DNA of 25,890 nucleotides from a virus. The notes under the pieces were generated by a model. It did not search any database. It had not been told where the DNA came from and saw only the letters and a list, made by a program, of their open reading frames with translations. Below, piece after piece: positions 2,015 to 7,532 of the stretch (positions are counted from its first letter, which is position 1; each line of letters opens with the position of its first letter). Location: the UHGV virus genome UHGV-0306558. One strand, written 5' to 3'. Made by a program: the position numbers and the translations under genes.

Positions 2015-2089
2015 GTCCTCTTAGTTAAATGGATATAACGAGCCCCTCCTAAGGGCTAATTGCAGGTTCGATTCCTGCAGGGGACACCA
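2015..2089 (+). tRNA. argW: tRNA-Arg (anticodon CCU); prophage integration target
   Basis: 75-nt sequence gtcctcttagttaaatggatataacgagcccctcctaagggctaattgcaggttcgattcctgcaggggacacca with T-arm GGTTCGATTCC, CCT in the anticodon loop and encoded CCA end. Followed directly by a phage integrase. Confidence 0.93.
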
Positions 2090-2250
2090 TTTATCAGTTC
2101 GCTCCCATCCGTACCAGTCCGCAAAATCCCCTGAATATCAAGCTTTCCGTAGATTTACAGTTCGTAATGGTTCGCGTCAGATCGTTGACAGCCGCACTCC
2201 ATGACGGGTAAAAAGTGGATAAAATAATTTTACCCACCGGATTTTTACCC

Positions 2251-3405
2251 ATGCTCACCGTTAAGCAGATTGAAGCAGCAAAGCCGAAAGAAAAACCATA
2301 CCGCCTTCTCGATGGTAATGGCCTGTACCTTTATGTCCCTGTATCAGGGAAAAAGGTATGGCAACTTCGCTACAAGATTGACGGTAAGGAAAAAATACTG
2401 ACCGTAGGAAAATATCCACTAATGACTTTGCAGGAGGCAAGAGATAAAGCATGGACTGCGAGGAAAGACATCTCGGTTGGCATCGATCCGGTAAAAGCGA
2501 AAAAGGCTTCGTCTAACAACAATTCCTTTAGCGCCATTTACAAGGAATGGCACGAGCACAAGAAGCAAGTCTGGTCTGTAGGATATGCGACTGAACTTGC
2601 CAAAATGTTTGACGACGACATTTTACCTATCATTGGCGGCCTTGAAATTCAGGATATTGAGCCGATGCAACTGCTGGAAGTAATCCGCAGGTTTGAAGAT
2701 CGCGGTGCAATGGAGCGAGCCAACAAAGCCCGCAGAAGATGCGGCGAGGTTTTCCGTTATGCTATTGTCACTGGTAGGGCTAAATATAACCCGGCACCTG
2801 ACCTTGCTGACGCCATGAAGGGATACCGCAAGAAGAACTTCCCGTTTCTTCCAGCAGACCAGATCCCTGCATTCAACAAAGCACTGGCAACATTTTCAGG
2901 AAGTATCGTATCGCTCATTGCGACCAAAGTTTTACGCTACACAGCCCTAAGAACGAAAGAGCTTCGTTCCATGCAATGGAAGAACGTCGATTTTGAAAAC
3001 AGGATTATCACTATCGACGCCAGTGTGATGAAGGGACGCAAAATTCATGTGGTTCCTATGTCAGACCAGGTGGTTGAACTTCTCACTACGCTAAGCTCAA
3101 TCACCAAACCAGTATCAGAGTTTGTTTTTGCCGGGCGCAACGATAAGAAGAAGCCAATCTGCGAGAACGCGGTATTGCTTGTGATCAAACAAATCGGCTA
3201 TGAGGGTCTGGAAAGCGGTCACGGATTCAGGCATGAATTCAGCACGATTATGAACGAGCACGAATGGCCCGCTGATGCTATTGAAGTGCAACTGGCACAT
3301 GCCAACGGCGGATCTGTGCGCGGGATTTACAACCATGCTCAGTATCTGGATAAGCGCAGAGAAATGATGCAGTGGTGGGCTGATTTCATTGACGGAAAAG
3401 CATGA
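2251..3405 (+). CDS. int: Tyrosine integrase, P4 family (IntS-like)
   Basis: ORF adjacent to the tRNA and transcribed away from it. Sequence from MLTVKQIEAAKPKEKPYRLLDG closely resembles K-12 CPS-53 IntS as recalled. Track start at 2215 is GTG; the ATG at 2251 is the likely start. Confidence 0.9.
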   Translation: MLTVKQIEAAKPKEKPYRLLDGNGLYLYVPVSGKKVWQLRYKIDGKEKILTVGKYPLMTLQEARDKAWTARKDISVGIDPVKAKKASSNNNSFSAIYKEWHEHKKQVWSVGYATELAKMFDDDILPIIGGLEIQDIEPMQLLEVIRRFEDRGAMERANKARRRCGEVFRYAIVTGRAKYNPAPDLADAMKGYRKKNFPFLPADQIPAFNKALATFSGSIVSLIATKVLRYTALRTKELRSMQWKNVDFENRIITIDASVMKGRKIHVVPMSDQVVELLTTLSSITKPVSEFVFAGRNDKKKPICENAVLLVIKQIGYEGLESGHGFRHEFSTIMNEHEWPADAIEVQLAHANGGSVRGIYNHAQYLDKRREMMQWWADFIDGKA

Positions 3406-3409
3406 ATCA

Positions 3410-3467
3410 TTAGCGCAAGACGAATCTTAACCTGTGATGATTTTGAGTTGTTTTGCGCTAATTTTTG
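3410..3467 (+). terminator. Candidate terminator for int: 9-bp inverted repeat plus T-run
   Basis: TTAGCGCAA (3410-3418) and TTGCGCTAA (3453-3461) are reverse complements, followed by TTTTTG. The 34-nt loop is long for an intrinsic terminator. Confidence 0.3.
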
Positions 3468-3496
3468 CCCCATCCATGCCCCATCACATCAATTTA

Positions 3497-5428
3497 TTAG
3501 TTTGTTAACACAGACCCACTTATGATTATTGCATTTGACGTACTGGTTATGTTTGGCATCCAAACCACACCGTTAGTATCGATCATCGCAGATCCATAGT
3601 TCGTACCAGCAGTATTCGAAACCTGTGCTGCACCTCCATATAACAGCCCTCCAAATGACGGAAGTGTCGTTTTTGATAGACCATGTTCACATGAAAGATA
3701 GTTTGTTGGCGACACTTTAACCGAAAAAGATACAATCTTATTATTTCTTGTAAATTTTCCTTCAATTAACGCACCTCCTGGAGCTGTCCAACCAGGGATC
3801 CCAGGTATAAAGTCGCGACAACTCAAATCTCCTGTAATTGTTAAATAGTTCTGAATCCAGGAATCAGAACCAGCTATTCCTTTTGTTAGTTTTTCTGAAT
3901 ACACATTAGTTATTTCTGTGTGCCCATTGACGCCTACAGCATTAATATCAGATGTCACATTACCTACCTGCGAATGTGATACTGGGTTTTCTATCAAAAT
4001 ATTACTATTGGCACCGGATGTGCCATCCAACTTAACCAGGGCTCCATCTATGTCTCCAGTAAGATTTCCATTCCCTGCGCCATATGGGGAGGTAAGAACT
4101 ACTTGAGAACACCCTGTAGTTAGATAAAAAACACCTAACTTATTTCCTTCCCCTGCGCAGTTGATAGCAGTAAACCCTTCAACAGAATGCAGTATATAGC
4201 CATACCCAGAAACTTCACTTCCTTCACTTGCACAAGTGTTCATAGAGCAATAGATACAATTTTGGAAATAGAAACAACCACCAATGCCATAACAGTTTTC
4301 AAACAGCAATGAAGTACATGCCGGTTGCACACAGAAAGAAGGGCCACCTCCATGCATCCACACTTTGCAATGAGAGATATTCCCCATGAAAGCACAGTCT
4401 GTGCCATCAGATTCCCCAAAGCGGATACCTTGCCCCCCAGGTCCAGTATCGGAATCCACAGTAATACCAGTTAATCTAAAATCATCTATTTTAGTCAGCC
4501 ATAAAGCGACTGACATCGAACTACCACCGGCACGATGCGATATATGAAAATCTTCTAAAACCAGACCTCTTACTCCCTTAAAAGTAATGGCACGCGAATT
4601 TTGCGGTATAGAATCAAAATTTAAATAGCAAAGGTTTTTAGTTTTGGCATTTGCCATATGATTATAAGAGCCAGTACCTGTTATTTTCAGGCTCGCCTCA
4701 TCATTAAAGTCAATAACAAGTGGTTTTGAAAATTTATATTTACCACTTAAACTAATTTCTTTACCCCGTGCAGCAGCGATGCATTTTGTAAATGCTTCAT
4801 GGCAATCAACGGTGTCAGTAGGATCTGCTCCCCACCATTCGGGTTTGTAGCTCCCTTCTATTACCCTCTTCCATCTCCTACCGGAAGCCCCAACCAAAAT
4901 GATTCCATCATCATCATCGCTCGTAGTGTCTGTATCATCTAAATAAAACCATCCTTCTCCGCCATCAAATGGCTCTAACCTCCCAAGGCAATATATTTTT
5001 TTTGATTTCTCAGAATAAGTTCTTATATCAGAAAAATACGCTCCTCCAACCAGCGTTGAGCCATAAACATCGGCTAGGCGACTTGTGAACTGATCCGGGT
5101 CGTACTTCAGAACATTCGGAAAATAGAACTGCTGCGCACCGTATGCATCATAAACAGCCATAGAATGGCCTTGCACAGTTACGAATTTGGCAATCTGTCC
5201 GTTATATACAGGATACCCGCCAGAGTTAATGATGATTGGCTGTGCAACAGGAACGTGAGAACCATCTTCGTTCTCTACATAAACCTGAATCTGGTTTTCA
5301 GGATTTACCGGATCAGTGTCAATTTTACCGATATAAATTTTGCCATTAGCTACGGCTTTAAAAGAGCGGGCCATAGTGAAGAGTTGCGAAGGCATCGATA
5401 CGATCACATTGGCTGTAATGTCTGTCAT
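3497..5428 (-). CDS. Tailspike protein: P22-type head-binding N-terminal domain joined to a divergent receptor-binding domain
   Basis: N-terminal ~110 aa ([13 protein letters not shown]...[24 protein letters not shown]...[15 protein letters not shown]...NVLKYDPDQ) match the P22 gp9 head-binding domain. The remaining ~530 aa do not resemble P22 gp9 as recalled; they are rich in G/S/T/N as expected for a beta-helix. Confidence 0.88.
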
Positions 5429-5485
5429 TTAATTTGCTCCAGATACAAGGAATCGCCGCAGCATGGCTACGGTGAATTTTGGGCA

Positions 5486-5510
5486 TAAAAAAACCCAGCC
5501 GAAGCTGGGT
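5486..5510 (-). terminator. Rho-independent terminator between ant and the tailspike gene
   Basis: On the minus-strand RNA: stem ACCCAGC, loop UUCG, stem GCUGGGU (5493-5510), followed by seven U (plus-strand A-run 5487-5493). Confidence 0.8.
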
Positions 5511-5528
5511 CGTTGCGTTGGTTATCTG

Positions 5529-6407
5529 TCAGTAGTTATGTACTGAAGGAGGTAATTCTTTATTCTTAAGTCTCATCCATGCGGAAAGATTCGTTGGTCC
5601 GTCTGGCTCATTGATATCAACATCTCGTGTGTGATTGATTAAAACGTCTCTCGCCATTCCGATAACATACGAGAACTCATGACCGTAGTCGTAGCATCTG
5701 CCGGAATAGTTCGATTGAATTTGTTTTAATGCCGGATACAGTTCGCGGAATAATGCCTGTGAACGGTTGGCATAATCCCATAACCATACAAGGCTGTTTG
5801 CTTCTTTTGCAGAAAGCTCGTTGGTTTTCTTCTCTTGTTTGCCGATAAATTCACCTTCAAGCACTACCCTGTGGATGTACTCTACGGCCAGCGGGATTTG
5901 TTCAATTGAAAGTTCATCAATGCTGTCAATACCAAAACGCTGATGAACCATATTGTATGCATCGTCATAGCGAAGTCCTTTCTTTCCTACCAGCATGTTT
6001 ACTGCATCTCGTAGCGGCGTTCTTTCCTCAACAGTGGTTTTCTTGCCTTTCACATACTCGCCATGTTTGCGAATTGAAGGTAGAACTTCTGCTGTTACCC
6101 ACTTGCGGAATTTGTGCGGGACCGAACCTTTATTGACAGCATCGCGGCAGCGCAGAACCAATGTATACATACCTGATTCGCTAACAATGCTTAGATTCTG
6201 CTCACCACCAAGGGTGTAACTTAAAGTTACTCCCTTTTCATCGTCATCAAGTGCAGTAAGCGCCTTGCGTGAGTTAGTCAGGGTTAAAGCATCACAAACA
6301 TCTTTTGCTACAAACCACGGCTCACCGCATTTGTTGATGACGCGGATTTCACTGTCGCCGAATTTGAAGATGGTGAAATCGTTTTGTGCCTTTGCTATAC
6401 TTTTCAT
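5529..6407 (-). CDS. ant: Antirepressor Ant (Bro-N/KilA-N-like N-terminal domain)
   Basis: [41 protein letters not shown]... Position downstream of arc as in P22 immI. ATG at 6407 follows AGGAAAT; the longer track ORF to 6473 is probably an N-terminal over-extension. Confidence 0.85.
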
Positions 6408-6475
6408 GTCAATATTTCCTAATCCGATTTGTTGATACCGAAGCCCTGACTGTTCCCGCAGTTGGGGCTTCAACT

Positions 6476-6637
6476 TTACGCGCCAATGCGCCCTTCCTTC
6501 TTAAAGCTTTCCATTACTCTCTGATAAATCTCAGAGTTAACAGACCGACCATTCTCTTCCGCCACCTTGCGTACCAAATCCAATACTTCTTTAGGCCACC
6601 GCAAATTGAACTGCGGCATCTTGCTCATTCCTTTCAT
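6476..6637 (-). CDS. arc: Arc repressor (ribbon-helix-helix)
   Basis: 53-aa product [53 protein letters not shown] is essentially P22 Arc as recalled. SD GAGGTG precedes ATG 6637. Confidence 0.95.
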
Positions 6638-6979: not shown

Positions 6980-6997
6980 AGGTGGGTCCTATTTATT
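6965..6997. terminator. Bidirectional terminator between convergent mnt and lipoprotein gene
   Basis: Hairpin CCCACC-TGAA-GGTGGG (6971-6986) flanked by AAAAAA upstream and TCCTATTTATT downstream. Confidence 0.7.
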
Positions 6998-7415
6998 AGT
7001 CTTGCTTTGTTGATGGTATAAGAGATGCGTTTGCCTCTTTTGGCTTCAAGGTATACATTCCACCATTAAATGGATCTACAGCAAGCCAACCAATTAACCC
7101 ACCAAACACAAGGTTCCCACCAATATACCAACCATTAGCATTGGCTTTGATTGGCAGGGTAACTGGTTCATACCCATCCTTCTCCATAGTGATCTGGTAG
7201 TTCTTTTTGCCAAAATAGCTACCATCTGACTTGGCGAGCGTTACACCTTGTGGGGTCCTACCTTGCGCAACAATCACACCTGACTCATCTTTTACCTTAA
7301 AGCTCGCGCCAGAAGGATTGCTGTTCACTTGCACAAGTTGCGTTTCATCACCAACAATAGTTGCGCACCCAGATAACATCATAGCGCCAGCAACGACGCC
7401 AATAATCCTCTTCAT
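6996..7415 (-). CDS. Putative lipoprotein with PEGA-like motif; accessory gene in the P22 sieA slot
   Basis: MKRIIGVVAGAMMLSGC has a signal peptide and lipobox L-S-G-C. Downstream PSGASFKVKDESGVIVAQGRTP resembles a PEGA-type beta motif. Region is AT-rich relative to neighbours. Start at 7415 (ATG) preferred over 7427. Confidence 0.6.
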   Translation of the reverse strand: MKRIIGVVAGAMMLSGCATIVGDETQLVQVNSNPSGASFKVKDESGVIVAQGRTPQGVTLAKSDGSYFGKKNYQITMEKDGYEPVTLPIKANANGWYIGGNLVFGGLIGWLAVDPFNGGMYTLKPKEANASLIPSTKQD

Positions 7416-7532
7416 ATCAATTTCCATATTTAAAAAACCGGAAACATCCTAATGACAAACCATTCAAATGTGAAGTAGGCAAAAGATGTTTACTTTTTTC
7501 ATGGTATCCTGCTCAAAACTAAGGAGGTTGGT

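Follow-up and report, generated by a model that had tools for sequence, protein, structure and literature searches.

A P22-type tailspike gene next to the integrase of an E. coli prophage

The viral genome UHGV-0306558, a stretch of 25,890 nucleotides (nt) that is called the window in the following, carries a complete tailspike gene, which is the subject of this study. The gene lies on the minus strand at 3497..5428 and comprises 643 codons plus stop in the list of open reading frames (ORFs). The same protein is gene-called in public assemblies, where it carries the Pfam families PF09008 and PF27114. It ends in a tandem stop, TAA TAA, separated by 91 nt (window 3406-3496) from the stop codon of a convergent integrase gene.

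The left flank of the window, consisting of yfdC, mlaA and a tRNA-Arg(CCT) gene, is E. coli chromosome and shows 99.9% identity to many strains. The tRNA gene, located by ARAGORN at 2015..2089 on the plus strand with yfdC and mlaA to its left, is argW, the prophage attachment site. The IntS-type integrase gene (2215..3405, plus strand; annotated intS in matching genomes) follows, and the right side of the window holds a full P22-type virion gene block with P22-specific Pfam families and intact virion genes. The genes are arranged in the P22 order gp4, gp10, gp26, gp14, gp7, gp20, gp16, mnt, arc, ant, tailspike, int and argW. The tailspike gene thereby stands at the end of the virion block, after mnt/arc/ant and adjoining int and the attachment site, as it does in three further public contigs (L002-L004). 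We conclude that it belongs to an apparently intact P22-like (Lederbergvirus-type) prophage at argW of the E. coli chromosome.

The N-terminal domain is that of P22-like tailspikes

Codons 1-113 (5090..5428, minus strand) encode a P22-type head-binding, or particle-attachment, domain. PF09008 is matched over profile positions 1-113 of 113 (E=2.3e-66), and residues 1-115 are 73% identical to P22 gp9 (BLASTP, E=2e-52). An initial annotation, made from the sequence of the window, had described the first ~110 residues as P22-like, which these matches bear out. The domain matches Sf6 gp14 at E=1.8e-64, and the solved head-binding domains of Sf6 and P22 are both recovered. Identity amounts to 84-94% for Sf6 (84-86%), HK620, CUS-3, N7 and other E. 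coli P22-like tailspikes, the highest value of 94% being reached with E. coli P22-like phages such as N7. The gene thus shares both its N-terminal domain and its position, after ant and before int and the attachment site, with P22 gp9, Sf6 gp14, HK620 gp9 and the CUS-3 endosialidase.

Past residue 115 there is no similarity to gp9. The best BLASTP segment in this part covers 26 residues at E=0.083, in line with the earlier statement that the remaining ~530 residues differ from gp9, and the body is not the gp9 endorhamnosidase. Sequence matches to the Protein Data Bank end at residue 116-120, and none is found to the body, either by sequence or by profile.

The receptor-binding part is an exchanged cassette

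The boundary between the two parts of the protein is also a boundary in the DNA. When the window was compared by blastn with its closest E. coli prophage (L009, strain 19AR0254), similarity was found at 2100-3380 and 5091-6600 and none between. Similarity to other P22-like phages and prophages restarts at window 5088-5091. The exchanged cassette therefore spans about 3381..5090 on the minus strand. Besides the receptor-binding part it takes in the intergenic tail of 91 nt and reaches ~25 nt into the 3' end of the convergent integrase gene. It sets in at about codon 113, just past the conserved KYDPDQ hinge at which other P22-like tailspikes break as well; CUS-3 is annotated with a 'boundary sequence' there. 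The interval 3497-5083, singled out in the initial annotation as the divergent part, corresponds to the 3' part of the ORF (~528 codons), and the DNA junction at 5088-5091 lies where it had been placed. Among carriers of the cassette, the dense divergence of the head-binding domain ends at codons 97-106.

At the other border, the window's integrase has the C-terminus ...QWWADFIDGKA* and that of the closest relative ...QWWADWLDEKFKVI*, the two sequences parting after ...QWWAD. This junction (3381-3405) falls within the integrase gene and assigns its last ~8 codons to the cassette, so the C-terminus of the integrase was swapped along with the tailspike body.

The coding DNA had been called noticeably AT-rich, and composition agrees. 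The guanine-cytosine (GC) content is 41.0% at 3497-5083 against 49.0% in the remaining prophage, the lowest value among 445 prophage windows of the same size. At third codon positions, GC amounts to 30% in the receptor-binding part versus 38-58% in the other virion genes.

The cassette is both rare and mobile. Its whole 1,710 nt are found at 98-100% identity in seven public contigs (L002-L004, L010 and L014-L016), of which L010 carries it on a different P22-like backbone, and other samples likewise have the exact protein encoded at argW. The flanks (integrase, head-binding part and antirepressor) are matched in 2,540 of 5,426 complete E. coli genomes, the best of them at 96-98% identity and ~62% coverage of a 4.5-kb query centred on the gene. 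The receptor-binding part, however, is present in none of the 5,426 genomes at either megablast or blastn sensitivity. These flanks without the body, together with the occurrence of the body behind unrelated N-termini elsewhere (see below), support the modular exchange behind a conserved head-binding domain that the initial annotation had proposed.

Prediction of a right-handed beta-helix with a distal beta domain

An AlphaFold2 model of the monomer was computed from an alignment containing nine homologs. The predicted local distance difference test score (pLDDT) is mostly 70-93 from residue ~160 to the end and low to moderate in the neck; the head-binding domain is poorly modelled because only two of the nine alignment rows contain it. 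The model shows a ladder of short strands at residues ~204-509, followed by an all-beta domain of ~11 strands at 529-642. Searches of the model with Foldseek matched solved tailspikes at E values of 1e-10 to 1e-15. Among viral models, gp17 of Shigella phage Sd1 was far ahead (E=5e-55). According to this prediction the receptor-binding body is a right-handed parallel beta-helix, the outcome that had been expected of structure prediction, and with its C-terminal domain the model follows the general plan of P22-like tailspikes. From these tailspikes it differs in its receptor-binding part of ~530 residues, which lacks sequence similarity to theirs and shows 9-17% identity in structural alignments.

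Three modules can be delimited behind the head-binding domain. The first, a neck or linker module (codons 114-195; 4844..5089, minus strand), is common to many tailspikes and continues into the first rungs of the beta-helix, up to about residue 240. Residues 132-223 match the AM24 tailspike (5w5p, E=1e-12), residues 8-192 match WceF (6tgf), and several PHROG tail families match the neck module only. The second module is the predicted beta-helix body (codons 196-530; 3839..4843, minus strand), presumed to be the polysaccharide-binding and catalytic part. The third, an all-beta C-terminal domain (codons 531-643; 3500..3838, minus strand), would form the distal tip of the spike; its ~11 strands are modelled at pLDDT 73-91 and it is conserved across the family.

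Neck, beta-helix and C-terminal domain are colinear in an unnamed family that we refer to as Sd1 gp17-like, with 92 invariant columns in nine sequences. Six invariant cysteines occur in a repeated 'N-C' rung motif and are read as an internal stack of the beta-helix. Codon 385 (4274-4276), located within the beta-helix beside this invariant cysteine ladder, encodes a derived Cys in the window allele and Tyr or Trp in the other alleles and all outgroups.

A rare body family shared with unrelated phages

The exact protein is deposited at NCBI as 'phage tailspike protein' (WP_244599908.1 and others), from both E. coli and Escherichia albertii. Among 50,697 phage records, the body is matched by Sd1 gp17 (YP_009791915.1) alone, residues 118-625 being 52.6% identical. 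When 5.8 billion proteins were searched, 16 matches were obtained: near-identical tailspikes that form a cluster of 101 members, five proteins at 52-54% and two at 37-38% identity, and weaker matches confined to the neck. Entries of the near-identical cluster include WP_244599908.1, WP_256876447.1, WP_309800175.1, WP_244569782.1, three from NCTC (SQK66488.1, SQL14978.1 and SQL29444.1) and one from E. albertii (UUL40417.1). In 1.84 billion cluster representatives, a profile search detected ~50-60 proteins that extend over the beta-helix body, and thousands more with a match to the upstream neck module only. Annotation resources are equally sparse: NCBIfam has no match to the protein and our local Pfam-A scan gave PF09008 only, although PF27114 (Phage_tail_beta) appears in precomputed Pfam listings for the exact protein and all close homologs. 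PHROGs yields generic 'tail fiber' and 'EPS depolymerase' families, mostly on the neck, the best of which (phrog_3918) extends to about residue 450.

In the relatives at 37-54% identity, the body follows unrelated N-termini. They are encoded by Sd1 (Drexlerviridae), an SU10-like podovirus in which the body stands beside a second spike, and a siphovirus with a family-A polymerase. Sd1 gp17, annotated as 'tail fiber protein' (Drexlerviridae, Wilsonroadvirus), and the metagenomic homologs P0002-P0006 are colinear with the window protein over residues 118-643 at 52-54% identity and have all family-conserved residues in common with it. They differ in their N-terminal anchors, Sd1 having 229 extra residues, and in their virions, which are of the siphovirus and SU10-like podovirus types. 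On the SU10-like phage contig (L005 5031-10037), a 678-aa homolog directly follows a larger beta-helix protein of 971 aa, so this phage appears to carry two tandem spikes. Among GTDB species representatives a single relative was found, in a metagenome-assembled genome of Collimonas sp. (L011 626-1942; 35% over the body). Since Collimonas is betaproteobacterial, the body family is not confined to enterobacterial phages.

The genes and genomes of the 37-54% relatives have a GC content of ~42%. This value fits the low GC content of the cassette and suggests that it was drawn from a pool of virulent phages. DNA identity to these relatives is ~66% and survives in the central beta-helix alone, which indicates that the transfer from this pool was not recent. 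The spread among P22-like prophages, by contrast, is recent, as the comparison of alleles below makes clear.

Candidate catalytic residues and presumed substrate

Residue conservation was counted over 31 family members with identities as low as 23%. Among polar residues, Y231 is kept best (100%), followed by Y380, Y393 and E427 (97% each), E402 (97%, as D or E) and D468 and Y411 (87% each). E402 (4223..4225, minus strand) lies in a C-A-S-E-G rung motif, and E427 (4148..4150, minus strand), which is Glu in 30 of the 31 members, lies in the motif C-A-G-E-G of the next rung. Both residues thus take the equivalent place in a repeated C-A-x-E-G motif, 25 residues apart. This spacing has the look of a carboxylate pair on adjacent rungs and makes E402 and E427 candidate catalytic carboxylates. 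D468 (4025..4027, minus strand; Asp in 27 of 31) is a third conserved acidic residue that may contribute. On this conservation pattern the protein could be a hydrolase with E402 and E427 as catalytic residues, an assignment we make tentatively and at somewhat less than even odds.

By analogy with studied tailspikes of the same architecture, the spike would be a homotrimer that binds and cleaves a specific polysaccharide of the host surface. The analogy most likely extends to the kind of target, presumably the O-antigen of an uncommon E. coli or E. albertii serotype. The initial annotation held that substrate and activity could not be told from sequence. This assessment stands, as the best relative, at 53% identity, is uncharacterised: Sd1 gp17 is annotated merely as a tail fiber or structural protein, and at 53% identity its substrate need not be the same. 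Homology searches in 50,697 phage records, the Protein Data Bank and the E. coli genomes gave no near-identical tailspike of known specificity, and no phage or prophage with an assigned serogroup was linked to the body among the 50,697 phage records and 5,426 E. coli genomes. The solved structural neighbours, i.e., phi29 gp12, the Det7 tailspike, CBA120 TSP2, K5 lyase, GH87 glucanase and AlgE4, show 10-17% identity to the window protein and no established common catalytic motif. As they mix hydrolases, lyases, epimerases and adhesins, their chemistry cannot be transferred.

This mixture of hydrolases, lyases and epimerases keeps alive a rival in which the body is a polysaccharide lyase or depolymerase that acts on capsule (K-antigen), colanic acid or another acidic exopolysaccharide instead of an O-antigen hydrolase. 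Beta-helix lyases have a pattern of Lys/Arg plus a calcium site. The best-conserved polar residues here, carboxylates and tyrosines, do not seem to follow that pattern, and O-antigens are the target of most P22-like tailspikes characterised from E. coli, Shigella and Salmonella. In E. coli Lederbergvirus prophages, moreover, the receptor-binding subtypes track O-serogroups (Pas et al. 2023, PMC10408124). We therefore consider an acidic-polysaccharide lyase unlikely, at about one chance in five. The same Lederbergvirus subtypes combine a genus-level anchor with a horizontally exchanged receptor-binding part shared across phage genera (PMC10408124), and the window tailspike resembles them in this respect; neither Sd1 nor this body type is mentioned by Pas et al.

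A body that only binds its glycan, or modifies it without cleavage, e.g., by deacetylation, is less probable still. An SGNH/GDSL or other esterase domain was found neither by Pfam nor by NCBIfam, and the model contains a beta-helix and a beta-sandwich only. Two or three acidic residues are kept down to 23% identity, beyond purely structural need. Tailspikes of short-tailed phages, which have to cross a thick O-antigen layer, are nearly always enzymes, and this general expectation also speaks for cleavage.

Amino-acid replacements outnumber silent changes between cassette alleles

Near-identical alleles of the cassette show 98% identity in DNA and only 95% in protein. Between the window and L010, codons 114-643 differ by 33 nonsynonymous changes and one synonymous change, corresponding to a ratio of nonsynonymous to synonymous divergence (dN/dS) of about 10. 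In the C-terminal domain the numbers are 18 and 0. Of the 34 differences, 31 fall on codon positions 1-2 and half are transversions. They span codons 116-635 (~1.5 kb) and cluster in the neighbouring codons 151-153, 554-555 and 576-584. The pattern is reversed in the head-binding part of the gene, where 19 synonymous differences face four nonsynonymous ones (dS 0.31). Across carriers of the cassette, its dS is 0.24-0.47 and its dN/dS 0.05-0.09; this part is anciently diverged among them and under purifying selection. In the non-coding tail of the cassette, 0-1 of 116 nt differ. The near-identical tail and the few silent changes indicate that the cassette copies share a very recent ancestor and were joined to old head-binding domains.

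The deficit of synonymous changes is significant against neutrality (p=0.0014) and against the head-binding domain of the same gene (p=2.5e-10). As a control, a cassette of another type was compared between two E. coli genomes at 97.2% DNA identity. Here, 31 synonymous and 15 nonsynonymous differences were counted (dN/dS 0.14), 33 of the 46 at third positions, and Fisher's test of the cassette against this control gave p=1.2e-9. The control prophage L023 (E. coli P393-F10), which has an H66-type tailspike, adjoins ybhB and not argW, with a truncated pseudogene between; the same tailspike type thus occurs in prophages at two chromosomal sites.

The DNA evidence for the replacement excess consists of five haplotypes that represent two or three lineages, and a larger set of alleles is needed for it to stand. 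Additional DNA alleles came from IMG/VR (three), while a JGI metagenome scan gave none. We also examined 14 public protein alleles from the 101-member cluster. In these, codons 554-631 (3536..3769, minus strand) form a dimorphic block with 13 fully linked amino-acid differences. Apart from four single-allele variants, eight alleles have form A, that of the window, and six have form B. Polymorphisms upstream of the block reassort among alleles. When the C-terminal domain was polarised with outgroups, the window form was derived at seven of nine resolvable sites, including four new Asn and one Tyr.

Two technical or mechanistic sources of the pattern were examined and rejected. Sequencing or assembly error does not account for it, since the same haplotypes occur in independent NCBI isolates and in Logan, ENA and IMG assemblies. 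Gene conversion of short patches, with diverged homologs as donors, was dismissed because 11-mers over the variant clusters match homolog loci at chance level, and the unrelated P22 genome equally often.

A replacement excess could also arise if the prophage gene were decaying under relaxed constraint and AT-biased mutation. Since A/T already makes up 70% of third positions, most GC-to-AT mutations hit positions 1-2, and the polarised changes are indeed mostly GC to AT. By a rough estimate, the expected synonymous share would drop from ~23% to ~17% as a result. Even at 17%, however, a hand calculation gives p ~0.01 for at most one synonymous change in 34, and neutral decay cannot raise dN/dS above 1, while the estimate is about 10. 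The gene does not look like a decaying one either. The ORF is intact in every DNA copy and, with the exception of a partial and a slightly truncated entry, in the 14 protein alleles; the virion genes around it are intact as well; and the polymorphisms leave the family-invariant residues untouched. Decay under mutation bias is therefore, in our view, an improbable cause.

Targeted mutagenesis by a diversity-generating retroelement (DGR) or a similar system would explain several traits of the differences: 31 of 34 lie at codon positions 1-2, adenine is present in one allele at 25 of 34, several variable codons are AAY (Asn) in the window, and they are packed most densely at the 3' end of a gene for a receptor-binding protein. 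The further evidence makes such a mechanism highly improbable. No template repeat of any tailspike segment was found in the 25.9-kb window, and no reverse-transcriptase Pfam family among the genes from gp4 to the integrase, which make up the tailspike-side half of the prophage. The differences extend over 1.5 kb, compared with a variable region of 100-200 nt for a DGR. The 14 alleles fall into two linked forms (the four single-allele variants aside) and form no continuum, the haplotypes are inherited and shared between contigs, and the polarised changes have an ordinary GC-to-AT-biased spectrum.

We favour selection as the cause of the replacement excess, with moderate confidence; it would reflect a recent adaptive change in receptor recognition. 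In Sf6, tailspike mutations that were evolved in the laboratory and alter host range have been mapped to the distal tip and next to the lipopolysaccharide site (Subramanian et al. 2022, PMC9400499). The natural replacements, too, reach their highest density in the distal domain, in parallel to these laboratory mutants. The Sf6 mutants carry one or two laboratory mutations with a measured phenotype (PMC9400499), whereas the 13-33 natural differences described here are known from sequence alone.

A bolder reading may also be entertained, although we consider it rather doubtful. The gene could be a recently mobilised depolymerase of new specificity under strong diversifying selection, and the two-form distal domain a second recognition surface by which host range is switched between lineages of E. 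coli and E. albertii. If this were true, the distal domain would recognise an O-antigen variant or a secondary outer-membrane receptor and would be the natural counterpart of the Sf6 tip mutations.

Signals and genes around the tailspike

The tailspike ATG is preceded by a ribosome-binding site, GGAG (5437..5440, minus strand; sequence read), with an 8-nt spacer (5429-5436). Between the antirepressor and tailspike genes, a terminator scan found a terminator-like hairpin followed by a T-run (5485..5511, minus strand), with an 8-bp stem, five GC pairs and a T7 tail. It occupies the position of the P22 ant terminator, annotated in P22 between ant and gene 9. On the other side of the gene, between the convergent integrase and tailspike genes and within the cassette, a 9-bp inverted repeat, TTAGCGCAA ... 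TTGCGCTAA, was read from the sequence (3410..3461, unstranded) and is followed by TTTTT on the plus strand. With its loop of 34 nt, it is absent from the terminator-scan output.

The gtrABC O-antigen-conversion operon of P22 (L008 18208-21352) is absent between tailspike and int, and no other O-antigen-modification operon takes its place. Unlike P22, the prophage thus has no seroconversion module at that site. At least one related E. coli prophage, H82, has an annotated acetyltransferase there.

Two neighbouring ORFs deserve mention. The antirepressor ORF, called mechanically at 5529-6473 (minus strand), begins with TTG and encodes 314 aa. In identical contigs the gene was called with 292 aa (Bro-N plus P22_AR_C), and translation probably starts at the ATG further downstream. 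The second ORF (6996-7427, minus strand; 139-143 aa) lies between mnt and the gp16-like gene and has no Pfam match. P22 has sieA and orf59a in that region, and the ORF may be a superinfection-exclusion or moron gene.

Interpretation

We assign a probability of roughly 80% to the following reading: the gene encodes a P22-like tailspike whose beta-helix receptor-binding cassette was exchanged horizontally and targets a surface polysaccharide. Residues 1-113 form the conserved domain by which such a spike docks onto a P22-type tail. From about residue 107-113, after KYDPDQ, the protein is encoded by a foreign AT-rich cassette of 1.7 kb, which supplies the neck, the predicted right-handed beta-helix and the C-terminal beta-sandwich. 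The cassette belongs to a small family of receptor-binding bodies circulating among unrelated phage types of ~42% GC. Recombination at two places, the hinge and the 3' end of the integrase gene, has recently brought it onto several P22-like backbones. Cleavage of the polysaccharide would let the virion reach the outer membrane. After the spread of the cassette, replacements outpaced silent changes, above all in the distal domain, and this probably reflects an adaptive retuning of receptor recognition.

The protein agrees with P22-like tailspikes in every feature that could be tested, and both exchange at the hinge and the sharing of bodies across genera are already well documented. The exact sequence has been deposited before, uncharacterised. 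Specialists might find notable only the excess of replacements and the dimorphism of the distal domain. Tailspike receptor modules decide which serotypes a phage can infect and are used as serotyping reagents and depolymerase tools. The cassette is probably a marker of an uncommon E. coli or E. albertii O-antigen or capsule, and its practical value will be modest until the substrate is known.

For the P22-like phages, the gene adds a rare and uncharacterised beta-helix family, shared with virulent phages of three other virion types, to the repertoire of receptor-binding parts. The cassette also offers a clean natural case, in which near-zero neutral divergence is combined with dozens of replacements and a dimorphic distal domain, so that the role of the residues concerned can be tested by swapping the two forms.

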